This document shows positions 8,206 through 32,315 of a stretch of 36,876 bases of DNA, one piece after another. Source of the DNA: a virus (lineage: Duplodnaviria > Caudoviricetes). The DNA is taken from positions 1 to 36,876 of IMG/VR virus record IMGVR_UViG_3300037518_000172, one strand, 5' to 3'. A model generated the notes under the pieces. The model was not told the origin of the DNA. It was given only the letters and a program-made list of their open reading frames with translations, and did not search any database. Position numbers and translations under genes: made by a program. Each line of letters begins with the position of its first letter. Positions within the stretch are counted from its first letter, which is position 1.

Positions 8206-8945
8206 CAGAAGACGCCGGGGAAAAGCCCGGGCGTGAAAGAGTCCTTCGGGTAGGGCTCGGATAGAAAATTCTCGTCATCGACGGTGGCGCTCACAATCAG
8301 CGCGTCCCAGCGCACTTCGGCAATGCGCATGTTATCGAATGACATTTCCACCGTATCCGGGTCCGCCGCCCGCACCACCTCCAGCAGCACGCTCGGCGGG
8401 GTATTGATCGAGCGGATTGCCTCGGTAATTTCCAGGCTCACATTCTGGATAGCCAGCGTCCCGGCGGAGACTCCGGTGTCATCCTCGCCAGGCAGTTCGC
8501 GCTCGAAGGGCATGGCCGTGAACGTATTGCCCCGGCTTTCCATATCGACCGCGTCACTGCACACGCGAATTGGCAAGGCCAGATCATCGTGGTCGATAGT
8601 CACCAGCACAATGAATGCCTCAGCCGTTTCCTGAGCGAACACCGCCGCCCTGGCTGTAGCGGATACACCAAGATTTCCCTGTACTGCCGGCGCAAATGCG
8701 CGCGCCACAGTCTCAGCCAGTGGCACGGCAACGACAGCAGCCTCCGACACCGTAGGTGCAAGGGCCGCAGTCTCCGTCGCGGCCAGGGGAATGACGGCAA
8801 AAGCACCCGCCGCCACCGCAGGCGCAAATGCCTGCGCCACGGTCTCAGCCAAGGGAACGGCAACGATAGCATTATCGGCGGTGGCACCCCAGGATGTGCC
8901 CCAGGATGTGCCCCAGGATGTGCCCCAGCTTATGCCGGCCCCCAC
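8205..8945 (-). CDS. DUF1833-like tail tip protein with a repetitive N-terminal extension
   Basis: C-terminal LVTIDH...PIRV...FTAMPF...FTPGLFPGVF. The N-terminus has SWGT repeats and three 22-aa PLAxT repeats. Confidence 0.8.
   Translation of the reverse strand: MGAGISWGTSWGTSWGTSWGATADNAIVAVPLAETVAQAFAPAVAAGAFAVIPLAATETAALAPTVSEAAVVAVPLAETVARAFAPAVQGNLGVSATARAAVFAQETAEAFIVLVTIDHDDLALPIRVCSDAVDMESRGNTFTAMPFERELPGEDDTGVSAGTLAIQNVSLEITEAIRSINTPPSVLLEVVRAADPDTVEMSFDNMRIAEVRWDALIVSATVDDENFLSEPYPKDSFTPGLFPGVF
8887..8928. repeat. 12-bp tandem repeat (CCCCAGGATGTG x3.5) encoding SWGT repeats
   Basis: Read directly from the sequence. Confidence 0.95.
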
Positions 8946-18935: not shown

Positions 18936-20980
18936 GCTGCTTCTCCCCTAAGTTGCCCACTCTCCGTCGCGCCTGTCGTCCTGCCGCCCAGGCTTGCATT
19001 CGCCTTCCGGCCACCCGCAACCGCGCCGGATGACGTGCCGGTCATGGCCGCAGCGGAGAGCCGACCGCTTTCAACCGCCGTGCCCATTGTTATCGCGAGT
19101 AAGGTAGGCGCGAACGCAATGGTTTCCGTCTCCGCCAGCGGGATGACAATCCTGGACCCGGCCGCGACTGACGGCGCGATAGAAGCCGTTTCGGTTTCCG
19201 CCAGCGGGACGGCAATGTTCGCACCGGCAAGTATCTCGATTGTAGGCGCGAAAGCAGCCGCCACCGTTTCGGCCAGCGGAGCAACCACACGGGCACCCGC
19301 CGCGACTGCCGGTGCAAATGCCGCCGCCACCGTTGCAGCCAAAGGCAGCACAATGCCGGAGCCCGCCACGATACTCGGGGCAAGCGCATCCGCCTGTGTG
19401 GCGGCAAGAGGCACCGTGACGACTGCCCCGGCGGCCACCGCAGGCGCTAAGGCACTTGCCTCGGTTTCGGCCAGGGGCACGGCGATACGAGCGCCCGACA
19501 CCACCACAGGCGCAAGAGCGTCCGCCTCGGTAGCGGCCAGCGGCATATTGACGTTTGTGCCAGCGGCGATACTGGGTGCGAGAGCGCTTGTTTCCGTCGC
19601 TGCAAGTGGCACCGCGATATCGACAGCAGAACCAGCCGCAACGGCAGGCGCCAGGGCCGATGCTTCGGTTTGCGCCAACGGAACGGCAACAGCAGCGCCT
19701 GCCACGACCGCCGGAGCAAGCGCGGACGTTTCCGTCGCGGCCAGCGGTACGGTAGTACTGGCGCCTGTTGCAACGGCCGGCGCGAGTGCGCTAGCCGTAG
19801 TCCCGGCCAGAGGAATTGTCGTTTTCGCGCCCGCCGCGATGCCGGGTGCCAAGGCGCCAGCCTCGGTGGAGGCCAGCGGAACAACTATACTAACGCCGGG
19901 TGTTTCCGGCTCCGCGAACTGGACCACCTCGAAGGCATAGGCACTCGCCAGCGACCCGGTGATGCGCCGGCTGGCGCGCACCGTCGTATCGGCGGCGAAG
20001 GTGAAGCCGAGGACGAAGGACGCGGCCCCCGTCGTCGTGTTCGTGTGTCCCATGGTCAGGCTCATGTTCGAGCCCGGATTGATGACCGAGCGCGCCTGGT
20101 CGATGGCCGTGATCGTCGTATCGTCGGCCGTCTCGCCGCTGCCGATCGTCGGCTGCGCACGCTGCACCGTCCATTCGTCGTTGGCGCAGGTGACGACGAA
20201 GACGGAGGTGTTCATGAAGTGGCCGGCCGGCGTGCCCCCGCCGAGCCGCTGGAACTGGACGTTGGTGGTGCTGGTCAGCGCCCACCACATGGCGCCATCT
20301 ACCGGATCGTCGTCGTTGTTGCCCGCCGTGTAGCCGCCGACGATGAACGTCTTGGCCATGTCGACGGCGCTGATCGCCTGGTTGTAGGCCGTGGCGCCCT
20401 GCGAGCTGGCGTCGTTGCTCAACTCCAAGAACTGCACCGCGAACTCGGTGCCGATGCACTCGACCACGTAGAACCGCCCGGTCGTCGTCTGGAGGGTGGA
20501 CGACGTGAACCGGGAAAACGTGATTTCCGTATCGGACGTGAACTTGGCCCGGTGGCAGGCCCGGTCGAACCAGAAGCCGCTGGCCGTGGCCATGCGCCAG
20601 GACGGAACGATGAACGCCTTGGACTGGTCGACGGCGGAGATCGCCGCCGTGCCGAACACCTGGCCGGAGGCGATGGTGAAGGTGCCCTGCTGGACGTTGA
20701 CCTTGGTCAGATCCCATTCGACGACGAAGATCTCGACCTGCACGTCGTCGCCGGTCAGCAATTGGGCATTGACCCGCGCCGTGCCGCCGTTGTCGTCGAA
20801 CCACACTTCCGGCAGCAGGTTGCCGTTGACCCAGGTGACCGCCGCGCCCGCCTCGCGGATCGAATAGTACGGCGTGCAGGCCGCCGGGTCCTGCCCCTTG
20901 GTCAGGTTCGCCTGCGCCGGATTCGTCCCCGACGAGAGCGTCAGCGTGACATGCTCGATGGATTTGTGCAGCGCGGGCAT
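18932..20980 (-). CDS. large modular virion/fibre protein: four ~90-aa beta repeats plus twelve ~22-aa PLAxT repeats
   Basis: The repeats are visible in the translation. Starts immediately after the stop of the upstream gene. Confidence 0.8.
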   Translation of the reverse strand: MPALHKSIEHVTLTLSSGTNPAQANLTKGQDPAACTPYYSIREAGAAVTWVNGNLLPEVWFDDNGGTARVNAQLLTGDDVQVEIFVVEWDLTKVNVQQGTFTIASGQVFGTAAISAVDQSKAFIVPSWRMATASGFWFDRACHRAKFTSDTEITFSRFTSSTLQTTTGRFYVVECIGTEFAVQFLELSNDASSQGATAYNQAISAVDMAKTFIVGGYTAGNNDDDPVDGAMWWALTSTTNVQFQRLGGGTPAGHFMNTSVFVVTCANDEWTVQRAQPTIGSGETADDTTITAIDQARSVINPGSNMSLTMGHTNTTTGAASFVLGFTFAADTTVRASRRITGSLASAYAFEVVQFAEPETPGVSIVVPLASTEAGALAPGIAAGAKTTIPLAGTTASALAPAVATGASTTVPLAATETSALAPAVVAGAAVAVPLAQTEASALAPAVAAGSAVDIAVPLAATETSALAPSIAAGTNVNMPLAATEADALAPVVVSGARIAVPLAETEASALAPAVAAGAVVTVPLAATQADALAPSIVAGSGIVLPLAATVAAAFAPAVAAGARVVAPLAETVAAAFAPTIEILAGANIAVPLAETETASIAPSVAAGSRIVIPLAETETIAFAPTLLAITMGTAVESGRLSAAAMTGTSSGAVAGGRKANASLGGRTTGATESGQLRGEAA
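19090..19895 (-). repeat. degenerate ~66-bp coding tandem repeat (12 copies of xxxVPLAxTxAxALAPxVxAGA)
   Basis: Counted in the translation of 18932-20980; boundaries are approximate. Confidence 0.85.
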
Positions 20981-21829
20981 CTACGAAACCGCCGCCAAGT
21001 CTTGCATGCTGCGAACCTCGCGCAGACACTCCCAAGCAAAGCCGCTCGATATTTCGTCGGCAGTGTACTGGCACCACGCCAGCTTTCTTGCCCACGCCGT
21101 GCGGTCCTGCCGCGCGCAGTGATCCCAGTCATATGCCGCAACGCCCCAAACCATTGAGCCGCGATCCCGCGCGATGGTTGGCACCCCGGCTAGGACTGCA
21201 TCAACCCCGGCCCCGCTGTTGAATGTCACGACCAAAGCCGCCCTCTTCAGCGCATCTTCAAGCGTTCCGCCGATCAACATGGCGCCATGCGGCAAAGGCT
21301 GATCCGCGTCTCGCGGGTGCGGCCGGAACATCACCGGCAGTTTCCAATCGAAGCAACAGTTCAGCACCGCCGTCAGATAGAAGTCGTCCATGTTCACGCC
21401 CGCCAAGCTGGCATCGCCGCGAACTTGGCCCATCAGAAGTGCGTAGTCGCCGTCTTTTCGCCCATTGCGCCATGGCTTCATCATGTGGCCGAAGTGCTTT
21501 TGCCAACGTTCGCCGCCGTCCCGTGCATCCGGGAACTTGGCGCGGCCATTGAGCCCGTCAAACCCTAACGAAGTCCACTCGCGGCGCATCGTGATATCGC
21601 CGATATAGCCGCGCTCCATGACAAGATAGTGCGCACCGGCCTCGCGCTGCATCGCGTGCAGTTCCGTATCGCGGTGATTCCAGACAATGGCCAGATCGGA
21701 GACTCGCCAGTCGCCCTTGCTTCGCTCTTCTGGCGCCAGCCCGTGGGCACGCAGCCCGGCCAGCATGGCATCCTCAACCGGCGCCGCCCATGGCGTGTCG
21801 GCTCGGTAGAGAACAATGTCTAGGGTCAT
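20981..21829 (-). CDS. capsule-modification (KpsC/KpsS-like, GT-B) glycosyltransferase-like protein
   Basis: VMERGY, LLMGQVRGDAS, FRPHP and VVTFNSGAGVDAVLAGVP motifs. Confidence 0.7.
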   Translation of the reverse strand: MTLDIVLYRADTPWAAPVEDAMLAGLRAHGLAPEERSKGDWRVSDLAIVWNHRDTELHAMQREAGAHYLVMERGYIGDITMRREWTSLGFDGLNGRAKFPDARDGGERWQKHFGHMMKPWRNGRKDGDYALLMGQVRGDASLAGVNMDDFYLTAVLNCCFDWKLPVMFRPHPRDADQPLPHGAMLIGGTLEDALKRAALVVTFNSGAGVDAVLAGVPTIARDRGSMVWGVAAYDWDHCARQDRTAWARKLAWCQYTADEISSGFAWECLREVRSMQDLAAVS

Positions 21830-22392
21830 TTGTGCTGCAATTGAAAAACTAAACCGAACCCAAAGCCGCGCTTAGGCCCAACGATCTCGCGTGTTTTATA
21901 GTGGTCCCGTATTTCATTCCAAAGCCGGGGAACCTCCACCTGATACCGATAGGCTGGCTTTGTTCCGGCCTCCCAGTCGATATCATGAAACGCGATGATC
22001 GGCGCCAACAGCCGGTAGAATTCCCAATCCAACCGCACCGCCTCGTACCTATGGTCTGCGTCGATGACACAAGCGTCGAACGGTGTCAGCGCCAAAATGG
22101 CGGCACGGACGCTGGCCGAATGACTGTCGCCAAAGATAACGTGCCCATCGAATTTCTCGACTACGCTTTTCAGCTTTTCCGCCGAGTCTGGCCGCCCCCA
22201 TGCCGCACCCGGCATATCAACGGCGACCCCAAACGCACCCGGCCCAAGTCCGCTCATGACGTGAGCGAAAAAGACGCCGGAGCGGGCGCCGATTTCCAGA
22301 TAACGCCGGACGCCAGCCTGCCGGAATTCGCTTACAAGCTCATCAAGTTCCCATTGACCGGATTTCCGTCCGTCCAGAAACGTGTCGGTCAC
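21826..22392 (-). CDS. class I SAM-dependent methyltransferase (Methyltransf_24-like)
   Basis: YLEIGARSG, GDSH, IDADHRYEAV..DW and IAFHDI motifs. Confidence 0.85.
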   Translation of the reverse strand: MTDTFLDGRKSGQWELDELVSEFRQAGVRRYLEIGARSGVFFAHVMSGLGPGAFGVAVDMPGAAWGRPDSAEKLKSVVEKFDGHVIFGDSHSASVRAAILALTPFDACVIDADHRYEAVRLDWEFYRLLAPIIAFHDIDWEAGTKPAYRYQVEVPRLWNEIRDHYKTREIVGPKRGFGFGLVFQLQHK

Positions 22393-23096
22393 CGCCAGTG
22401 CTCCCCGATGAACGGATATTCTTTCTGCATCAGCGGCATGGCGGGCGAGCGCGGGCCGTTGAAAAACACGACGCGCGCCCGGCCCGGATCAGACACGGCC
22501 CGCACGGACACTATGTCGCCATCCCACGGCCACACGGGTTCACCGTTGCCGAGCACATGCGTCAGCCAGGACTGATCGTCTACGGCAAGGCTCGCCGCAG
22601 CGAGCTGCCCTGGCGACGCGTCCAGATCGAATTGCTCCCATACTTGCGGCCGGGCGCCGGCATCTAGCAGCACGAACGACATATTGTAGCGGCTATATGG
22701 CCTGCCCGCTTGGTGGTACAGGCGCGGCTCCCATGATTTGAAGTCTCCGGCACCCTCTAGCAGCGGGTCCAGGTCGCGCAAGATCACGCAGTCGAGATCC
22801 ATCAGCAAGATTCGTGTCCCCAGCCACGCGCCCGCTTCCGGGTGGAAGATCACAAGGCGTCGAAACCAGCCCGGAACGTCGTCGCGCAACACCACATCCG
22901 CGTGCGGCTGGGGCACGACATGCACGCGCGGGTCGATCCCGTCCGGCATATCTGTCACACAGACCAATTCGTGCGGTTGCTTCAGGTGCCGCTCCAGCAT
23001 CGAACGCAGCCGGTTAACGTAATCCGCCGAATAAACGAACAGGTGGTTGTGACGGCCGTTGGGATCGAACCAGAGAAATGTCACTACCGTCAGCAT
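22389..23096 (-). CDS. GT-A glycosyltransferase (GT8-like)
   Basis: YVNRLRSMLERHL...VCVTD, LLMDLDCVI (DxD), DQSW and VVFFNGP motifs. Confidence 0.82.
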   Translation of the reverse strand: MLTVVTFLWFDPNGRHNHLFVYSADYVNRLRSMLERHLKQPHELVCVTDMPDGIDPRVHVVPQPHADVVLRDDVPGWFRRLVIFHPEAGAWLGTRILLMDLDCVILRDLDPLLEGAGDFKSWEPRLYHQAGRPYSRYNMSFVLLDAGARPQVWEQFDLDASPGQLAAASLAVDDQSWLTHVLGNGEPVWPWDGDIVSVRAVSDPGRARVVFFNGPRSPAMPLMQKEYPFIGEHWR

Positions 23097-23620
23097 GACA
23101 ATATCTTTGCCGCGTTAACCTCGACCGCTCCCGTCATGTCCAGTACAAGTATCGGTGCGCCGCGTTCTGTCATTGCTTCGAGCGCGCGGCGAACATCGCG
23201 AACCGCTGCGGGCGTGTCATATGTCCGGCCCGGCTTGAGGCCGGACCTGATGCGTTCTGCCAACCGCGCCTCGATAACCTCGACCGGCGCCAGACAGAAC
23301 GCCGCCGTATCGGGCAACGGAATGCAGTCAAGATAACCGGGCGGCGCGCCTATCGCCCGTTGCAGTGGCATGTGCGCATCAACCGCAAGGCCTTCGATGA
23401 AGGATAACTGGATAGCAGCCGCACGCCGCAGTGACACTTCGGCTACCTCTTCCCACTGCGGCGAACCGCCAAGCGCGCCAATCCATTCAATGTCCGCATC
23501 CGTCCGGTTCATCGACACGAACGACCGCAACGAATTTCCATGCAGCGCTTGATCGCCGAGGGCTTCAAGCAGCGTCGACTTGCCCACACCCGGCGCGCCG
23601 CAGATTTGAACCAGCCTCAT
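23090..23620 (-). CDS. P-loop kinase (NMP-kinase-like)
   Basis: Walker A GAPGVGKST at the N-terminus and an RLAER lid-like motif. Confidence 0.75.
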   Translation of the reverse strand: MRLVQICGAPGVGKSTLLEALGDQALHGNSLRSFVSMNRTDADIEWIGALGGSPQWEEVAEVSLRRAAAIQLSFIEGLAVDAHMPLQRAIGAPPGYLDCIPLPDTAAFCLAPVEVIEARLAERIRSGLKPGRTYDTPAAVRDVRRALEAMTERGAPILVLDMTGAVEVNAAKILSC

Positions 23621-24159
23621 CGCGGCTCTTTATGCGTCACCACGCAAGCATACTCTTTCTGGCGCGTGGCAAACGGCTTGACCGCGAACCGCGACTCCAG
23701 CTTGCCTTGCCACCAATCGCCGTCATGCACGGACAGGTGCGGGTTGCGCCCATCCGGCAAACAGTGGCTGAGCGCGTACTTCGTGGCGATCCCGATCAAT
23801 CCGACCCGACGTACCAGCGAGGCGAGATGATCCAGCACGTTATCGACGTAATCCGGCTCGACATGCTCCATCACGTCATTGCATATCACGAAATCCGCTG
23901 GCCCCGGCAGACCGTCCTTGCCCGAAATGGCCGGGTCATACTCGGCTACCGGGATATTGATAAACTTCGCCAAGGCCACCGCAAACGTGCCCTTGCCGCA
24001 ACCATAGTCGAGCGCATCCTTGCAACCATGATCAGCGATGAGCTTGGCCGCTTTCTGCGCCCATCGGAACGATTCCGCGCCGAAGTCCGCGGCCCTGTGC
24101 ATCAGTCTGTTCTGCTCGACGTAGGACTGCGAGATCAGGGCTCGCCCGTCCCAGTTCAC
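23617..24159 (-). CDS. class I SAM-dependent methyltransferase
   Basis: ALDYGCGKG, EYDPA and DFVICNDVMEHVEP motifs. Confidence 0.88.
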   Translation of the reverse strand: MNWDGRALISQSYVEQNRLMHRAADFGAESFRWAQKAAKLIADHGCKDALDYGCGKGTFAVALAKFINIPVAEYDPAISGKDGLPGPADFVICNDVMEHVEPDYVDNVLDHLASLVRRVGLIGIATKYALSHCLPDGRNPHLSVHDGDWWQGKLESRFAVKPFATRQKEYACVVTHKEPR

Positions 24160-25049
24160 AGCGGCACCATCAAAAATGATGCATGCGATCCGTTGAGCAG
24201 CGCCACGTCCGACTTGTCCTTGCTGCGTCCGCCGTTCAGCTTCGTCTCAGCCACCAGAGGCAAAGCCGCGAAGCGCACGCCCAGCATGGTAAAGTGGTAA
24301 CGCGGATCGCCAATGATCTGGTCGTCGGTCAGAGCGACCGGGCGGACTGTGCGGTGATATCCAGCCGCCGCGAGGTCGATGCCCGGCACAATGTCCTTGA
24401 TGCCCGCGGCGCCGAACTTCCGGCGCGCGGCACTATCGAGAATGATATCTATATCGTTCGACTCGCGCAGCCCGCAGGCTTCGAACACCCCGCCCGAGAT
24501 CACGCACGCCTGCCGCCGGTCGATACCGTTCTCGGCACACCAGACCCGCATCCTGTGTAATCTGTCGTAATAGGCCGGGCGCAATGGGAACGGCCGCCGG
24601 TGGACGTGCGCAAGACTCACCGGTTGGAGCAGATCGAGCAGATAAGCCGCCTCAGCCTCACCGTCCGACGCATGAACGTTGAGGTGCATCTTCGTCCCGG
24701 CGACCCGCGCTGGGTAAGCTTCCCGCAGCACCACCTTCATCGCATCGCACGCTTGGCCGAGCGCTCCGTTGCGCGGGCGCGCGATAATGGCGCGAAGGCG
24801 AAACCCATGCGGCTCCAGTAGTCGGAGCCGTTCGCGGTTGGGGTTGATGTAACTCCGCTCCCGTGCGTCGGGATGCATCGCAATCGATTTGAGCATGTAG
24901 ACGTCGCAGTTGAACGACCAGAACGTCTCCATGCTCGCGAAGGCCAGGTCTATGCGCCGGTCGATCTCGAACCGCTCGGCGATCATCGCCTCCATCGCGC
25001 CCCAGTGTTGCCGCACTGCCGACCAGAGCAGGAACACGCCAGGCGTCAC
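24156..25049 (-). CDS. hypothetical enzyme with a C-terminal nucleotidyltransferase-like motif
   Basis: VISGGVFEACGLRESNDIDII and a terminal RSKDKSD; VHASD in the N-terminal half. Confidence 0.55.
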   Translation of the reverse strand: MTPGVFLLWSAVRQHWGAMEAMIAERFEIDRRIDLAFASMETFWSFNCDVYMLKSIAMHPDARERSYINPNRERLRLLEPHGFRLRAIIARPRNGALGQACDAMKVVLREAYPARVAGTKMHLNVHASDGEAEAAYLLDLLQPVSLAHVHRRPFPLRPAYYDRLHRMRVWCAENGIDRRQACVISGGVFEACGLRESNDIDIILDSAARRKFGAAGIKDIVPGIDLAAAGYHRTVRPVALTDDQIIGDPRYHFTMLGVRFAALPLVAETKLNGGRSKDKSDVALLNGSHASFLMVPL

Positions 25050-25768
25050 AACAGCGCCCGCACCGACGATGGATACTCGCCCTCGTACCGGGCAACCGGG
25101 ATGCGGCGTGCGGCAATTGTCTGAAAATGCGGGATCGACTGCCAGTCAGCCGGCCATTGGCAAGTCGCCGACTCCAGCGGCTTCCTCGCCCATTTAAAAT
25201 GCAGGAACGCGGGTCTGTGATCGAAGGCATCGTCTGCATCGGGGACGCCTTTGAGGTTTTGCGTGACAGGCCCTTGCTCATACCGGACGCCGGGGCCGGC
25301 CCTGTAAATCCCGGTTGTTCTGCACAATGGATGAACGCCAATGTGCGTCAATGCGTCGCCCACGATGTCCCGGCCCTCGAAACGGATGCGGTCCCGGCCT
25401 TCGCCCAGAAGCCGCCTGATCTCCGCACCTAGCCAGTCCATCGCCACCATGTCGCCGTCCCATTTCAGGTGATGCGTGCCGGTTGCCTTTGATGCCGTGA
25501 AATTGTAGAGCGCGGCGCTTGACCTGGGATCGGTTGCCGGGATTTGCGCGTGTCGCGGCCCCATTTCCCAAGTCTTGTAATCGTGTTCATAGACCTTGGT
25601 CTTGTCGGGGTGTTCCGCCGCGAATTTGGCAACAATCTGCGGTGTAGCATCGGCGGGCTGATTGAGCACGATCACCACTTCATCAACCCACTCGACAATT
25701 GATTCGAGTGAGTGGTGACACCAAACCTCTTCGTCTCTAAGTCGGACAAGCGCGGACAATCTAGTCAT
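25046..25768 (-). CDS. GT2-family glycosyltransferase
   Basis: LSALVRLRDEE...SLESI...VDEVVIV...DAT, and LKWDGD (DxD). Confidence 0.82.
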   Translation of the reverse strand: MTRLSALVRLRDEEVWCHHSLESIVEWVDEVVIVLNQPADATPQIVAKFAAEHPDKTKVYEHDYKTWEMGPRHAQIPATDPRSSAALYNFTASKATGTHHLKWDGDMVAMDWLGAEIRRLLGEGRDRIRFEGRDIVGDALTHIGVHPLCRTTGIYRAGPGVRYEQGPVTQNLKGVPDADDAFDHRPAFLHFKWARKPLESATCQWPADWQSIPHFQTIAARRIPVARYEGEYPSSVRALL

Positions 25769-25777
25769 GTTGGGCTA

Positions 25778-25807
25778 TTGACATCATGTGCCAGATTGGC
25801 ATAGGGT
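25778..25807 (+). promoter_or_regulatory. sigma70-like promoter with a palindromic operator in its spacer
   Basis: TTGACA (25778-25783), an 18-nt spacer, then TAGGGT (25802-25807). TGCCA-GAT-TGGCA inverted repeat at 25789-25801. Confidence 0.7.
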
Positions 25808-25835
25808 ACGAACGTCGTAGCATCGACAGACCATC

Positions 25836-25907
25836 TTAGCCAGGCCGGGCATCGCTACGCGAAGCCGCGCCGGGCATGGCTCGGCGTAGCGAGGCAAAGC
25901 ACAGTCC
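25836..25907 (+). repeat. pentamer array 1 (candidate guide RNA)
   Basis: ttAGC caGGC cgGGC atCGC taCGC gaAGC cgCGC cgGGC atGGC tcGGC gtAGC gaGGC aaAGC acAGT cc: 13 consecutive GC at exact 5-nt spacing. Confidence 0.92.
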
Positions 25908-25944: not shown

Positions 25945-26532
25945 ATGCAAATCAAAGTCTTCCGTTTCACCGGGTTAACCCCCCTTCTCATGTCCAACAT
26001 CGAGAGCGTCAACCGCGATGCTCCTACGCTCAAGCTCGGCACGAAGCCGAACAAGGGCGACATCGAAAAGATCGCGGAGGCCGCTACCTACCGCGACACC
26101 GACGGCTCGCTCTACCTGCCAACGCAGGCGCTCCGATCTTCGTTGCTCGACGGCTGCTCGGGACAGAAGGTCGCCGGCACCCGGATCGGCCCGAGGAAAA
26201 TCTTTCAGGGCGTTCTGTTTTGCAGCGAGGATCGCGCAACGCTCCTGAACCCCAAGAGCAAGCCGATCACCGAATACGAGATACAGATCGACAGCGGCGT
26301 CAACAAGGCCAACAAGGCACGCATCATCGTCGTCCGGCCGCGCATCGACGAATGGCACGTCGATGTTCCTTTCGAGATTGACGACGAGTTCGCGCCTACC
26401 AACTTCGAACAGTTTCTCGACACCGTGCTTTCCATCTGGAACCGGGCCGGCCGTGCCGTCGGCGCTGGCGCGTGGCGTCCTCAGAACTCCGGACGGTTCG
26501 GGCGGTATAGTGTCGAGATGGTCGGTAAGTAG
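25945..26532 (+). CDS. stand-alone RAMP-superfamily (Cas7/Csm3-like) protein
   Basis: GGAG SD; 195 aa. Beta1 FTGLTPLLM, then LYLPTQALRSSL (cf. P.IPGSSLKG.LR), and a C-terminal glycine-rich loop GRAVGAGAWRPQNSGRFGRYSV. Confidence 0.75.
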   Translation: MQIKVFRFTGLTPLLMSNIESVNRDAPTLKLGTKPNKGDIEKIAEAATYRDTDGSLYLPTQALRSSLLDGCSGQKVAGTRIGPRKIFQGVLFCSEDRATLLNPKSKPITEYEIQIDSGVNKANKARIIVVRPRIDEWHVDVPFEIDDEFAPTNFEQFLDTVLSIWNRAGRAVGAGAWRPQNSGRFGRYSVEMVGK

Positions 26533-26545
26533 TTTCACGTTTTGG

Positions 26546-26610
26546 AACGATGCGGAGCGGTGCTTTGCTTAGCGTGGCCCGGCAGCGCGTCGCCCAGCAC
26601 AGCACAGTCC
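26546..26610 (+). repeat. pentamer array 2 (candidate guide RNA)
   Basis: AACga TGCgg AGCgg TGCtt TGCtt AGCgt GGCcc GGCag CGCgt CGCcc AGCac AGCac AGTcc. Confidence 0.92.
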
Positions 26611-26778
26611 TAACCATGGCCGATGCCGGTGAATTTATCTTTCGGTGCTTGGCCGAGCGAGGCCCAGCGTCGCTTAGCGTGGCCCGGCAGCGCGTCGCCC
26701 AGCACAGCACAGTCCTAACCATGGCCGATGCCGGTGAATTTATCTTTCGGTGCTTGGCCGAGCGAGGCCCAGCGTCGC
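26567..26778 (+). repeat. exact 105-bp tandem duplication
   Basis: 26567-26671 is identical to 26672-26776, plus 2 further nt. Confidence 0.95.
26646..26715 (+). repeat. pentamer array 3 (chimera of array 4's 5' half and array 2's 3' half)
   Basis: TGCtt GGCcg AGCga GGCcc AGCgt CGCtt AGCgt GGCcc GGCag CGCgt CGCcc AGCac AGCac AGTcc. Confidence 0.9.
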
Positions 26779-26815
26779 CATGCATAGATGGGCCCGGCAA
26801 AGCAAAGCACAGTCC
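26751..26815 (+). repeat. pentamer array 4 (candidate guide RNA)
   Basis: TGCtt GGCcg AGCga GGCcc AGCgt CGCca TGCat AGAtg GGCcc GGCaa AGCaa AGCac AGTcc. Confidence 0.92.
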
Positions 26816-26835: not shown

Positions 26836-27501
26836 ATGAAAAAGCACCCACTCTCCAGCCTAGTTCTCGACTTCGACTTCTACCCGCGCGGCAGCGTGGA
26901 CTCGCATCACGTCAACGAGATCGCTTCGGCCATGCAGGCTGGCGCGCCCATGCCGCCCATCGTCATCGACAAGAAGTCCAAACGCATCGTCGATGGTTTC
27001 CACCGTTACCGGGCCTATCTCCGGCTGCATGGCGAAGCCTTCGAGATCGACTGCGTTGAGAAAGACTACGCCAACGACAAAGAGCTATTCCTCGATACCA
27101 TGCGGTTCAACGCCAGCCACGGCAGGGCGCTCACTCAGCACGACAAGGCTCACTGCATCATTCTGGCGAAACAGTTCCGCATTCAGCATGAGCTCATTGC
27201 CGAGGCGCTGAACATCACGCCGGACCGGATCGGCGTGCTCACGTCTACCCGAATGGGCAAGGTCGGCGCCGCGCCCATAGCCCTCAAGAGCACGATCTCC
27301 CACATGGCCGGGCGCAACCTGACTCCGGCGCAATCGACGGCCAATGACAAGCTGTCCGGCATGCAGCAGTCGTTCTATGCGAACCAACTCATCACGCTCA
27401 TCGAGAACGACCTGATCGATGCCGAGGACGAAAACCTGATGCGCAGCCTTTCGCGCCTGGCCGACTTGCTCCCGCGCGTGCTAGAAAGGAAGGCGGCTTA
27501 A
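26836..27501 (+). CDS. ParB/Srx N-terminal domain protein with a downstream HTH
   Basis: AGGAG SD. YPR...PPIVID...IVDGFHRYRAY box; NASHG; ELIAEALNITPDRI is HTH-like. Confidence 0.85.
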   Translation: MKKHPLSSLVLDFDFYPRGSVDSHHVNEIASAMQAGAPMPPIVIDKKSKRIVDGFHRYRAYLRLHGEAFEIDCVEKDYANDKELFLDTMRFNASHGRALTQHDKAHCIILAKQFRIQHELIAEALNITPDRIGVLTSTRMGKVGAAPIALKSTISHMAGRNLTPAQSTANDKLSGMQQSFYANQLITLIENDLIDAEDENLMRSLSRLADLLPRVLERKAA

Positions 27502-27503
27502 CC

Positions 27504-27563
27504 AACGGGGCGTTGCGCTGCCCGGCACTGCCCGGCAAATCCAGGCACATCAAAGCACAGTCC
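27504..27563 (+). repeat. pentamer array 5 (candidate guide RNA)
   Basis: AACgg GGCgt TGCgc TGCcc GGCac TGCcc GGCaa ATCca GGCac ATCaa AGCac AGTcc. Confidence 0.88.
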
Positions 27564-27564
27564 T

Positions 27565-27738
27565 ATGACAGGATCAGAACTCAAAGCACTTCGTAAACGC
27601 CTCGGTCTGTCGCTCGCTCAGGCGGCGCGGCAGGTCGAGGTCAGTGTCCGCACCTGGGCCAGATGGGAAACCTCAGAGCGCGTCCCAGATGGCGCGATCA
27701 AGTTGTTCGAGATCGTAAACCGCCTACGCAAGCCCTAA
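27565..27738 (+). CDS. small XRE-family HTH regulator (57 aa; absent from the ORF track)
   Basis: MTGSELKALRKRLGLSLAQAARQVEVSVRTWARWETSERVPDGAIKLFEIVNRLRKP*. Confidence 0.9.
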   Translation: MTGSELKALRKRLGLSLAQAARQVEVSVRTWARWETSERVPDGAIKLFEIVNRLRKP

Positions 27739-27756: not shown

Positions 27757-28002
27757 ATGCTGAAACATTGTTGCACCGCACTCCTGGCCAGCGCCCTCAT
27801 CGGCTGCGCGGGCTATCTCCCGCAAGCCAACGAGTACTGGATGCACTCCAACGGCTTCGGCCAGGCGACGACTTCCGATCTCACCGCCTGCAAGTACGAA
27901 GCCGCCAAGTCCGGCGGCTACGATTGGATCGACGCCAGCCTGAGACGCAGCAAAGTGTTCGACCTCTGCATGCGCACCAAGGGCTATATCCCTCGCGTGT
28001 AG
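27757..28002 (+). CDS. small lipoprotein
   Basis: LLASALIGC lipobox, then DLTACKYEA...FDLCMRTKGY. AGGA SD-like motif. Confidence 0.8.
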   Translation: MLKHCCTALLASALIGCAGYLPQANEYWMHSNGFGQATTSDLTACKYEAAKSGGYDWIDASLRRSKVFDLCMRTKGYIPRV

Positions 28003-28019
28003 GCTATTACTGACTTTAC

Positions 28020-28079
28020 AACGCCGCAAAGCGTCGCGCAGCGCAGCATGGCGGAGCGTGGCCAAGCACAGCAAAGTCT
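28020..28079 (+). repeat. pentamer array 6 (candidate guide RNA)
   Basis: AACgc CGCaa AGCgt CGCgc AGCgc AGCat GGCgg AGCgt GGCca AGCac AGCaa AGTct. Confidence 0.9.
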
Positions 28080-28107: not shown

Positions 28108-28809
28108 TCAGGCTGCGCGGCTGACTCCAACCAGCGCCATCACCCGCTCATGGAATGCCATGGTGGCCGCGCGGCAACCGGCCAGTGTTTCACATGAAAC
28201 ATTGTGGAATTTCGAGCTGTAGCCGTGGACTTCGACCTTGCGGCCAAGCCATGAGGCCCACGTCATGCCATGGTAGCTATTCGTCACCACCGTCTCCGCC
28301 GATCCCAGGAAGGCGACGATATCTTCCATCGGCGCGGTGTTGTCCAGCATCGGCAAGCCGGTGTTGTAGGCGGCCGGGTACCTGGCCCTGATAGTCTCGC
28401 TGGCGTTCACAAAGGCAACCGCCGGGCGCGTCACCGGGTATTCCAGATCGAACAAATAGCTCATGCAGGACGGGCACGGCGCCCACAGCCCCGCCTTCTC
28501 CCGCTCCGGCGTCCATTCCCGCGTGCCGATCAGGGAAAAGCCATCGGGGTCCGGCCACGGCTGCGTCTCTCCATGCCGCGACGATCCGGCCCCCCAGATG
28601 ACCTTGGGCGTGATCTCCGATGGCCGGTTACTGTTGAGCCAATTGACCATCGTTCCGCCGCCGTAAATCTGTATCTCGCTGTCGTACCTGACCTGATCGC
28701 TGTAGTTCAAAACCTCGATCTGATCAGTGCCGAAGTCGAAATACTGCGCAGGGCAGGACGCCATGTCGCCCGTGTTGCGGGGATCGCGGATATGGACGAA
28801 GGAGAGCAT
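28108..28809 (-). CDS. polysaccharide pyruvyl-transferase-like protein
   Basis: NTGD, IYGGGT, VIWGAG, IGTRE, PCPSCM and VVTNSYHG motifs. Confidence 0.78.
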   Translation of the reverse strand: MLSFVHIRDPRNTGDMASCPAQYFDFGTDQIEVLNYSDQVRYDSEIQIYGGGTMVNWLNSNRPSEITPKVIWGAGSSRHGETQPWPDPDGFSLIGTREWTPEREKAGLWAPCPSCMSYLFDLEYPVTRPAVAFVNASETIRARYPAAYNTGLPMLDNTAPMEDIVAFLGSAETVVTNSYHGMTWASWLGRKVEVHGYSSKFHNVSCETLAGCRAATMAFHERVMALVGVSRAA

Positions 28810-29093
28810 CAGCTATTCGATGGCTTACGCCCACCGCTTCCCATATTCGGCGGGTTGGGCGGTGGGTTTGACGGTGGCCGGCCATCGGCGCGCGGGCGGT
28901 AGCCTTCACCCGGCCGCCTTGGAACGTCCGTATCATCCATTGCGATTTCTAGTCCTGTCGATGCAACCCATGCCCCGAGCACGAATATCTTGGCTGCTAG
29001 CCAATGGCGGAAGTTCAGCGCTCGAAGGCCAGTCACGGTGATCGTCACATATTCACGTGACAACTTGGCCGCATTTATTGTCATCGCCATCAC
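28809..29093 (-). CDS. hypothetical protein
   Basis: 94 aa, coupled by stop/start overlaps on both sides. Confidence 0.55.
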   Translation of the reverse strand: MMAMTINAAKLSREYVTITVTGLRALNFRHWLAAKIFVLGAWVASTGLEIAMDDTDVPRRPGEGYRPRADGRPPSNPPPNPPNMGSGGRKPSNS

Positions 29094-29713
29094 AAAGCCT
29101 CTTCCAGCTTTAACTTAGGAAACATGTCCAAGGCCGTGTCCCTGCTACAGTTTATGACCTCAACGCCAGCTTTCGCAAGATCGGGGACCATGGTCGCGAA
29201 CTTTTCTCGCCATTCCTGCAACTGGGCCTCGGCCGGATTCCGGCCGGCATGATCCTTGTGCCAGTGCCTTTCGCCATTCGGCCCGAACTTCATGTCGTAT
29301 CCCAGCAACAGAATACGCTTGGCCCCCAGAAGCACCGCGAGATTCACGCCCTGGTAGCCCGAATTGGACCCCGTGCACAGGTACTCGGGATCGAAGCTCA
29401 GGCCGGTGTTGGTCCCATCATGATGGTACTTCAGGACGTGAACATCGCGGAACTCAATTGCCTCCAGGCAGACCTTCAGCCCCCTGAAGCCGGGGGCGTT
29501 CTGCGCCTCCCGCCACCATGTGGCATCGGCCCCGTAGAGGACGTCAGCCCACTTGGCTCGCTCGAAGGTTCGATTGACGACGAGGACTCGGCATCTTCCT
29601 TCGTCTCGGGCGCGGCGGACGTACTCGATGTCTCGATCATTGAGACTTGGTCCGGAGGCACAGCAAACGGCAGTTTGCCCTTCCCAGAGTCGGGGGACGC
29701 GCCATGGCCCCCC
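29090..29713 (-). CDS. sugar-transferase-like (GPS...NSG...LLGYD) domain with no in-frame start codon; probably reached by frameshift
   Basis: The frame reads WRVPRLWEGQTAVCCASGPSL...VVNR...WADVLYGAD..WW...GSNSGYQGVNLAVLLGAKRILLLGYDM...VINCS. There is no ATG/GTG/TTG upstream of 29347 in this frame. Confidence 0.7.
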   Translation of the reverse strand, partial: GGPWRVPRLWEGQTAVCCASGPSLNDRDIEYVRRARDEGRCRVLVVNRTFERAKWADVLYGADATWWREAQNAPGFRGLKVCLEAIEFRDVHVLKYHHDGTNTGLSFDPEYLCTGSNSGYQGVNLAVLLGAKRILLLGYDMKFGPNGERHWHKDHAGRNPAEAQLQEWREKFATMVPDLAKAGVEVINCSRDTALDMFPKLKLEEAL

Positions 29714-29907
29714 TTTGTAGGAGGGGCTGGCGGGGCCTTGAGAACGATCTTCGGGGCACCAACGAACTCGGTCGCCCTGTTGCGCCTGATCCAGCGCCGG
29801 GCGGAGGTGGTGGATAGCTCCACCACCTCCCCGGCCCGGAAGGACTGTTCGACGCGGCCAAGATGATCGCGAATCTCCGTGTCCTCGGCGAACATGACTT
29901 TCATCAT
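29476..29907 (-). CDS. small head-associated hypothetical protein (first ~65 aa credible; the tail overlaps the next frame)
   Basis: GGAGGTG SD. MMKVMF...FRAGEVVELS..SARRWIRR; follows the decoration-like gene. Confidence 0.6.
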   Translation of the reverse strand: MMKVMFAEDTEIRDHLGRVEQSFRAGEVVELSTTSARRWIRRNRATEFVGAPKIVLKAPPAPPTKGGHGASPDSGKGKLPFAVPPDQVSMIETSSTSAAPETKEDAESSSSIEPSSEPSGLTSSTGPMPHGGGRRRTPPASGG

Positions 29908-30764
29908 ATCACCTCCGCTACCGATGCCAGATTGTGAGCGGAACCGATGCCGATCTTCGGAAACACGCCGAATGCCACGGCCCCGACGTCCGAAGTCGCG
30001 TTCTCCGGCGACGACGAATCGGCAATCGTCACCGACAGCTTGACGAAGCGGTAACCGTTGGCGGCGTCGAGATCATCGGCCCGCAGATCCAGCTTCACTT
30101 GCTGGTTGGACTCGGCGGGCGAGTTCGCCTGAGCGAATGTCGCCGTGGTCTTCCCAGAAACATCCTTGTAGATGCCCCCGGCGGTCGTGGCCTGCGTCCA
30201 CTTCATGACCACGCTTCCGTCGGTCCCGAGGTCGCCGATCATCAACACGCCCATGGCGCAATGCCATTTCGACATGTCGATCGCATCGCTCAACTGTGCG
30301 CCCGGAGCGTATGCATCAGGGTCCACAGTCCCCACGAGGCCGACGACTTCCGACGGCAGCATGTTGGCGACAAGGACGCCCTTGAAGCCCAGAAGCAACG
30401 ACGCCGAGTCGGCGCCGGCCGTGGTCAGCGTCCGCACCATCTTGACGTAGCGATGGCCTTCCGTCAGTTCCGAGCGCCGGAGATTGATCAGCGCCTGCTT
30501 GTCGCTGTCATCGGGTGACGCTTCGGTAAGCTGGGTAATCGCCTTGCCGACGATATCCGAGCCACCGGACGCCGCCGTGTTGGACTGAAGCTTGAGATCG
30601 TACTTGCCGGTGGAGACGATGGTGCCAACCAGGCCAACGGCAAGCAAGGCTTCGTAATCGGACATGTCGGCATAACCGCTCGACACGGCCGCCTGCGTGT
30701 AAGCATCGGGATCGACAGCAGCGACGCAATCGATGACCTCGCTCGGCAGTAGATTCGTGAACAT
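29904..30764 (-). CDS. capsid decoration/cement-like protein with two tandem homologous domains
   Basis: Directly after the capsid gene, with an AAGGAG SD. NLLPSEV..V..VDPDAY occurs twice. Confidence 0.7.
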   Translation of the reverse strand: MFTNLLPSEVIDCVAAVDPDAYTQAAVSSGYADMSDYEALLAVGLVGTIVSTGKYDLKLQSNTAASGGSDIVGKAITQLTEASPDDSDKQALINLRRSELTEGHRYVKMVRTLTTAGADSASLLLGFKGVLVANMLPSEVVGLVGTVDPDAYAPGAQLSDAIDMSKWHCAMGVLMIGDLGTDGSVVMKWTQATTAGGIYKDVSGKTTATFAQANSPAESNQQVKLDLRADDLDAANGYRFVKLSVTIADSSSPENATSDVGAVAFGVFPKIGIGSAHNLASVAEVI

Positions 30765-30821: not shown

Positions 30822-32261
30822 CTAACCGCGCGCTGCAAGGGAAACGAAACACGACAGGGTATTGGACCCGTTCGCCGGTTGGATCGCCGAGCCCCACCAC
30901 GGCAAGCCCGCCATCCGCAGGATAAACCGGAAGGCCAGCGTGTCATAATCGAACCACAGGTGCATGGACACGTCCTGCCGGATTCCACCGGTCTTCATGG
31001 CGGTCATGTACTGGGTCAGATCGGCAAGGATGATATCGCCGACATCGCCGAGCGTCTTACAAGCTTCGACCGGTACGACCGGGCGGCCCTTGAGAGTCGC
31101 GAACGGAGAGGCCGACAAGCCGCCCGCCGGCATGAACAACGGTGCCGTCGGGTTGGTTCCCGGCATTTGCAGATAATCGAGCTGCGGCTCGACGTCCTGG
31201 TTGATCAGCCAGATCGCATTCGAACGGCTGGGCGCATACATGCGCGCCCACATGTTCGTAATGTTCTGCGCCAGAACGGTATCGGCCACTTGGCCCGATT
31301 CCTTGGCGACTTCCACCAAGGCATCGGACGCAAGAATGCCCTTCGGCTGGCCGGCACCGGTGCCATTGATGATGGCGTTCTGGATTTTGTAGTCGAACTT
31401 CTGCGGTGCCTTCCGATTGATGTAGGTGGAAAGCGCCGACGCATCTTCCAGAAGTTCCTCGGTGACCGGAACCAAAGCCGTCAGCTTGTTCAGGCGGATC
31501 GTGGTTTGCTCCAGGGCGACCTTGGACTGCGTGATCAGAGATCCTTCACCTTCCCAAAACGCCTGAATACCGCCGGTCGATTGCCACGGCGTTGTTTCGT
31601 CTTTCGGCAACGTGATCGAGTTGGACGCGGACGTGAGCTGGTCGGTGCGGGCCAGCAGGCTATCGACGCCCATGACCTTCTCCGTGATCGCCGTGCGGAA
31701 GTCAGGCGGCACTGCGAAACCGCCGTCAGCACCGACACCCTCGGTTGAGGTCGTGGTCGGGGCATTCATCGTGAGGCGAGGATCGAGCCCCCCAGGCGCC
31801 GCACGAACCGCGGCCTTGACGGACTGGGCAAACTCGCCGAACGACCGGAAGCCGTGACGTCCCACATCCGCTGTATCGCGGGGGCGGGCCGCTACGGTGC
31901 GCCGCTTCGTTCCCTTGTGATCGGGATCGGACGAAGCCGCCACATCGTCGGGGTCGGTTTTACGGCCAAGAGGCTCGGCAATGCGGGCCTCCGTGTCCGC
32001 GATCTTCTCCCGGCGATCGATCTCCGCTTCGACGAATTCGAAGCGTGCGAAAATCTTCTCGATCTCCGTGTTCTCTTCATCGGACAAGCCGCGCTTTTCG
32101 GCGTCGGCCGTGGCCTGAAGGGTTTTGGCCTGATCGGAAAGGGTCACGAGTTCATCGCGAAGCTCGTCGACCTTGGTGCCGTCGTTGAAAATCAGGGTGC
32201 GGATGCTGGCGTTCTCACGCAGATACGCTTCAAGCTCCGTCATCTTGCTGATAACGTTCAT
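30822..32261 (-). CDS. HK97-fold major capsid protein with an N-terminal scaffold (delta) domain
   Basis: Coiled-coil N-terminus; DGGFAVP, VTEELLED, IINGTGAGQPKGIL and TLKGRPV motifs. Confidence 0.95.
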   Translation of the reverse strand: MNVISKMTELEAYLRENASIRTLIFNDGTKVDELRDELVTLSDQAKTLQATADAEKRGLSDEENTEIEKIFARFEFVEAEIDRREKIADTEARIAEPLGRKTDPDDVAASSDPDHKGTKRRTVAARPRDTADVGRHGFRSFGEFAQSVKAAVRAAPGGLDPRLTMNAPTTTSTEGVGADGGFAVPPDFRTAITEKVMGVDSLLARTDQLTSASNSITLPKDETTPWQSTGGIQAFWEGEGSLITQSKVALEQTTIRLNKLTALVPVTEELLEDASALSTYINRKAPQKFDYKIQNAIINGTGAGQPKGILASDALVEVAKESGQVADTVLAQNITNMWARMYAPSRSNAIWLINQDVEPQLDYLQMPGTNPTAPLFMPAGGLSASPFATLKGRPVVPVEACKTLGDVGDIILADLTQYMTAMKTGGIRQDVSMHLWFDYDTLAFRFILRMAGLPWWGSAIQPANGSNTLSCFVSLAARG

Positions 32262-32315
32262 TGATTTATTTCCTTCTAAGGATAGCCGGCGCTTCACAGC
32301 GCGGGCGTCGTGTGT

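Follow-up and report, generated by a model that had tools for sequence, protein, structure and literature searches.

The stretch analysed here (the window, 36,876 nt of phage DNA) carries an HK97-type head module on the minus strand, including the phage's own capsid gene (30822-32297, minus strand; PF05065, E 2e-44). On the plus strand we found a cassette made up, in order, of guide array 1 (25836-25907; 14 units, tail ACAGTCC), a vipr gene encoding a RAMP/Cas7-like protein of 195 aa (25945-26532), guide array 2 (26549-26610; 10 informative units plus tail), guide array 3 (26644-26715), guide array 4 (26749-26815), an accessory gene encoding a 221 aa protein with a ParB/Noc-like fold (26836-27501), the degenerate guide array 5 (27507-27563), a helix-turn-helix (HTH) gene of 57 aa (27565-27738), and guide array 6 (28023-28079). 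All six arrays have the form YNNNG, with 11-14 five-base units each. An 8-GC ladder matched 19 times in the window but never in 100 shuffles, and thus the periodicity of the arrays is not due to chance. The sequence ACAGT(CC) closes five of the six arrays, as well as arrays of relatives, although the folding of tail and guide was no better than that of shuffles (z 0.47). By eye, we noted a candidate sigma-70 promoter upstream of guide 1 (25777-25806, plus strand), with a perfect TTGACA, 18 nt spacing and a weak -10; a promoter scan of this region called a weaker overlapping site alone (25796-25823), at chance level.

The genes around the cassette (20981-25768 and 28108-29347), which lie inside the structural module, resemble surface-glycan or modification enzymes, based on a methyltransferase domain and on weak glycosyltransferase and pyruvyl-transferase matches. 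We also noted an 81 aa lipoprotein-like ORF without a family between the HTH gene and array 6 (27757-28002), a gene of 286 aa behind the capsid whose two halves resemble each other (29904-30764; phrog_28483 twice), which is perhaps a tandem head decoration protein, and 66-bp (22 aa) repeats common to two tail-region genes (19092-19879 and 8674-8855).

The cassette is a VIPR system, a CRISPR-related gene silencer described in 2026 (10.64898/2026.04.26.720920), based on the homology and fold of its Vipr, the five-base arrays and the minimal locus of vipr plus accessory gene. The vipr product had 55 database matches and belongs to no Pfam family, and a Pfam scan gave no name for either Vipr or its ParB-like partner. 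A profile of 50 homologues of the vipr product, searched against the PDB, matched the SUSP1 Vipr (36PP, E 7e-10), and the AlphaFold model (pLDDT 92.8) matched Csm3/Cas7 chains (E 6e-7). The protein is thus a small RAMP with thumb and G-loop, homologous to the described Viprs, and the arrays correspond to those of VIPRs, which have 9-16 five-base units with a GGY/NN consensus or a related one (NNNGG, YNNNG, NNNNG). The RAMPs of class 1 CRISPR-Cas systems (Csm3, Cas7) have a fold like that of this Vipr, but we found neither a CRISPR array in the window nor a cas family among the 25 ORFs scanned, and class 1 requires both a CRISPR array and a cas operon. In relatives at 57-81% identity, gene order and arrays are alike; the ParB-like gene follows vipr in all eight other close loci examined, and the HTH gene also lies behind it in L123, L125, L126 and L128.

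Like the type II VIPR of Escherichia phage SUSP1, this system has a homologous Vipr, one guide upstream of vipr with further ones downstream of vipr and of its partner, five-base units, and guide dinucleotides composed like the first two positions of codons. In contrast to SUSP1, in which the unit is GGY-NN, the unit here is C-NN-N-G, so that GC is fixed and three bases vary. The SUSP1 Vipr reads the first G of GGY via H17 and D177, as described in the text of 10.64898/2026.04.26.720927; here, these residues are replaced by S17 and A176, while R131, W177 and R178 (listed also as R138, W178 and R179) are kept. Moreover, a ParB/Noc-like partner stands in place of vap1, an HTH gene is added, and the tail is a short ACAGT. 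The similarity of the partner to the SUSP1 vap1 candidate was confined to 29 residues (E 0.017), and by sequence comparison the accessory gene is not SUSP1 vap1. Thus, the cassette lacks both the GGY scaffold read by H17/D177 and the vap1 partner that mark the SUSP1 type. It does have the repeat of the YNNNG VIPRs, an alternative consensus named in the methods of 10.64898/2026.04.26.720920, and of the non-canonical arrays of 10.64898/2026.10.21.760802, with Y being C here; compared by text alone, those systems are listed without a targeting rule, a residue explanation or a target.

Several related Viprs were seen in other phage loci. One locus (L310, 16990-18870), with a capsid 54% identical to that of our phage, carries a canonical GGY VIPR (His17, GDYRP) among head-tail genes, with the same ParB-like partner (33% identity). 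Pseudomonas phage LESphi2 (L165, 2001-2585) encodes a Vipr homologue, annotated as a hypothetical protein, with canonical GGY arrays flanking it. Related Viprs in L134, L135, L137, L140, L143, L153 and L154, and in L145, L146 and L162, have arrays fixed to AGC or TGY; the AGC-type arrays are 85-100% A, some with more than 30 units. Finally, one guide in the GC-scaffold VIPR of L301 (9885-9939), which decodes to RKQIADYHT, agrees in 16 of 18 read bases with the vipr gene of L363 (3189) and may be an anti-VIPR guide.

Array 2 comprises 12 NNN-GC units (26549-26608), preceded by 26546-26548; the last unit ends in GT and is followed by CC. Its triplets are DGGFLVPSVPTT, and without the GC they translate as D-G-G-F-L-V-P-S-V-P-T-T. 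The original prediction held that array 2, with its GC removed, spells the capsid motif DGGFLVP, and this decoding, which spans units 1-7 (26549-26583), was exact on recheck. Also confirmed was the comparison with the phage's own capsid, which reads DGGFAVP (31727-31707, minus strand): 16 of 21 nt are identical, six of seven first-two-base pairs match, and three mismatches are at wobble positions only. The caution that a six-of-seven self match alone may be chance was well placed: when the seven dinucleotides were permuted, 32 of 1260 orders scored six of seven somewhere in the window. A reading in codon phase with the wobble base skipped had likewise been proposed, and agrees with the published VIPR rule, by which each unit is bound by one Vipr, its NN pairs, one target base is skipped, the skips fall on wobble positions, and silencing occurs without cutting (10.64898/2026.04.26.720920, 10.64898/2026.04.26.720927, 10.64898/2026.10.15.759431).

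A database search with the gapped pattern against a shuffled null, as had been suggested, revealed an enrichment of capsid genes. The 14-base gapped pattern of units 1-7 occurred in an estimated 970 or so viral stretches; among the 120 matches listed, and leaving out 7 ORFs of <40 aa, 85 of the 113 in-frame ORFs scanned matched PF05065, nearly all from the first profile position. The collection-wide null was one shuffled pattern with the same dinucleotides, which occurred in ~310 viral stretches. With a local capsid profile, 27 of 40 real matches with equal flank were capsid-like, compared to 1 of 120 for the shuffle (among the matches listed) and none of the 73 matches to a pattern taken from array 1. 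All 14 read bases match over the seven units, and DGGFLVP itself is the commonest form among the capsid matches (42 of 89, the 89 being the 85 by Pfam and 4 truncated ones assigned by eye).

We estimated the role of chance within the lineage from 80 loci that encode the closest capsids, grouped into 64 clusters. Four of these 64 clusters contain the pattern of units 1-7, while the probability that a random window of guide composition is shared by at least 4 was 1.9e-5 (corrected, 3e-4 for the 18 windows of the phage's own guides and 5e-3 for 256 windows in 71 guides). None of the other windows among the 256 matched more than one cluster. In its Ala form, which is present in 36 of 64 clusters, the site matched ties for the highest conservation among gapped 14-mers of the lineage. 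This null overstates significance, since the loci were chosen partly with the DGG pattern and only motifs of the lineage were counted; we judged the true chance of a seven-unit match to be above the computed value, at most a few percent. Thus, the capsid match of units 1-7 is probably real.

Since three bases of each unit vary here, we considered whether the base that replaces the G once read by H17/D177 is itself read. Aligned with the published structure, the third base thus freed would face the skipped target base. It is a tentative reading, on balance rather doubtful, that this base pairs the skipped base in part, bringing the guide nearer to a three-letter code. Both G1-reading residues are replaced, and retention of G tracks them among 47 loci: in all four loci that have His plus an acidic residue, 75-100% of the units retain G, compared to 4 of 42 Ala loci in which at least 70% do so (one locus has Gly), with the limit that the patterns used to retrieve the Ala loci contained this Ala and that near-duplicates occur among these loci. 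Furthermore, stop triplets are depleted among 454 units (46 guides, 12 close loci; 4 compared to 13.4 expected; 0 of 5000 permutations), a deficit that persists given the second base (P 0.0002), while antisense stops show none (12 compared to 10.8 expected). TGA is absent (0 of 17, compared to 39 of 75 in other xG boxes; P 2e-5), with 13 TGG and no TGA over 7 loci. That the literal triplets spell DGGFLVP, the commonest capsid form, also favors this reading.

Other observations count against a third-base reading. The effect is mostly in the TG box (TA box alone, P 0.14), there was no significant stop deficit in 25 guides of four more distant loci (P 0.17), and in SUSP1 three of six non-G third bases equal the skipped base, which is too few to tell. 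In four-fold boxes, A is frequent as the third base (GGA, CGA, GCA), in contrast to codon use in the carrier phage, and this rules out that the third base is a plain copy of the wobble base of a GC-rich target. Avoidance of a GCTNAGC restriction site was rejected as a cause of the stop deficit, as TTA units are common (8 of 18). A broader picture is equally tentative, in which the branch without G-reading residues would read the skipped base where it is invariant (Trp, and partly two-fold codons), with near-literal codon strings set between GC spacers, a ParB-like clamp partner and in-register duplication, aimed at the most conserved motif of rival capsids.

The original prediction had the guide aimed at the capsid gene of rivals; units 1-7 fit capsid genes far beyond chance, but units 8-10 (26584-26598) do not. 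Units 8, 9 and 10 match the capsid in 1, 1 and 0 of the 89 capsid matches, and after VP the capsids mostly continue P-D/E/Q-F, compared to S/R-V-P in the guide. The 18-base nine-unit pattern had no viral matches. Over ten units, the best totals were those of one distant capsid gene (L034), with 17 of 20 read bases, of the best close relative, with 15 of 20, which falls below the published 80% requirement, and of the phage's own capsid site (DGGFAVPPDF; 31698-31727, minus strand), with 13 of 20. For calibration, SUSP1 guides match their satellite in 22 of 26, 28 of 30 and 21 of 24 read bases, with mismatches mainly far from the tail, while a fourth guide has no clear site (19 of 28). The mismatches of array 2 are at the tail-side end, the reverse of the SUSP1 pattern, and cryo-EM places the start of Vipr assembly at the tail end of the guide (as described in the text of 10.64898/2026.04.26.720927). 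Since CCA units are frequent just before the tail in arrays of relatives, unit 10 may be scaffold, in which case two discordant units would remain.

If the seven-unit match were a coincidence, the real target would be an unsampled non-capsid sequence that matches all ten units. This we consider improbable, although the match does end at unit 7, missing the units nearest the tail, and the conserved motifs of all phage families form a larger target than the lineage null counts. A few bacterial genes match nine units, one of them at 19 of 20 read bases, but these 7 stretches in bacterial genomes are not capsid-like by eye, and 7 matches of 18 bases in 596 Gb are not above chance. Moreover, the corrected chance within the lineage is low (3e-4 to 5e-3), and the site matched is the one conserved best in the capsid family to which the carrier's own protein belongs.

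Thus, we think it likely that array 2 acts as a VIPR guide RNA, and that selection has fitted its first seven dinucleotides to the conserved DGG motif in the HK97-type capsid genes of rivals, which would be bound and silenced; since no motif of HK97-type capsid genes is more conserved than the one spelled by the first seven units, the guide likely aims at rival phages. According to this explanation, array 2 would be transcribed from the plus strand, one Vipr would bind each guide unit, two bases per unit would pair with the target while every third target base is skipped, and bound Vipr would repress the target by DNA binding without cutting. The targets would be capsids of the Leu or Phe type, encoded by phages or satellites less closely related to the carrier, unlike the satellite recombinase targeted in SUSP1, and the carrier's Ala-type lineage would be matched less well. 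Either the true target is a capsid variant outside the collections, or the three tail-side units may have been replaced, leaving a weakened guide or a relic. We conclude that array 2 is probably a true VIPR guide, and that its capsid match, although incomplete, is probably genuine as well.

The distribution of capsid forms indicates who would be spared by this guide. DGGFAVP is the commonest form among aligned relatives (39 of 79), and Ala is found at that codon in 19 of 27 relatives of at least 50% identity. Capsids that match all seven units, with Leu (TTR) or Phe, are found in 10 of 79 relatives, nine of them at about 40% identity and one above 50%. Since Ala predominates in the capsid lineage, close kin would be spared as well. 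We also considered that the guide is aimed at the carrier's own lineage, either damping its own late capsid gene or excluding superinfecting kin, as its own site, like that of most close relatives, matches six of seven units. This is very improbable: with 13 of 20 read bases matched, self includes a full two-base miss in the middle of the guide, and no self targets at 80% are reported in the published analysis, as far as the text of 10.64898/2026.04.26.720920 goes. Nor does the idea that the carrier escapes by a private substitution of its own hold, since Ala is the majority state of its capsid lineage and of its close kin, and thus the carrier did not mutate away; it is likelier that the guide survived because it spares its own lineage.

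A replaced 3' end of array 2 would fit what we observed of guide turnover. A perfect 105-bp tandem duplication (26567-26776, plus strand) in the five-base register has made array 3 a chimera of arrays 4 and 2, in which the six leading units of array 4 are joined to units 5-12 of array 2. This duplication is real and polymorphic among sequencing runs: contigs with the duplication junction are at full depth in run X1 (8.1 compared to 7.4-8.4) and in run X3 (18.1 compared to 18.8-19.6, with the unit at 39.9), from either of which this DNA may stem, and at minor depth in run X4 (2.5 compared to 7.75), and one contig of run X7 skips the 105 bases. The locus L001 was rejected as proof of a single-copy strain, since it forms, with L300, a pair of fragments separated by a break at the repeat, and run X7 is the better evidence. 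With this duplication, a swapped 3' end of array 2 becomes plausible.

Searches with the other guides yielded nothing convincing, either for arrays 1, 4, 5 and 6 (guides of 12 close loci against 1.25 Mb, and a 71-guide set, with at least 7 units, against 80 loci of capsid relatives) or for array 3 (against the 1.25 Mb of fetched loci). The central pattern of array 1 had 73 viral matches, the best of which (21 of 24) is antisense to an unrelated gene, with 0.26 expected by chance, and was rejected.

Part of this picture is in print. The mechanism has been described, the targeting of conserved codons with wobble alignment is a published pattern (10.64898/2026.10.15.759431), and the YNNNG repeat variant is listed, although uncharacterised in the text. 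Capsid or ParB is not mentioned in the text of 10.64898/2026.04.26.720920, and in the passages of 10.64898/2026.10.15.759431 examined, the word capsid is used for helper hijacking and for filters rather than for a target. Thus, capsids were not found named as a target class in the VIPR texts examined; data S3 and S4 may include capsid targets and a type with the GC scaffold.

Array 2 offers a natural example of a wobble-blind guide that covers those codons of a structural gene which are conserved best. How new guides arise is an open question in the field, and the polymorphic in-register duplication illustrates one route. The cassette also represents a VIPR branch in which two bases form the scaffold, with an explanation for this at the level of residues and with statistics that hint at a reading of the freed base, all of which is testable. 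If the third base is read, each unit of a VIPR guide could carry 50% more information, which bears on the use of such guides as programmable tools and on the transition between gapped pairing and the contiguous pairing of CRISPR.
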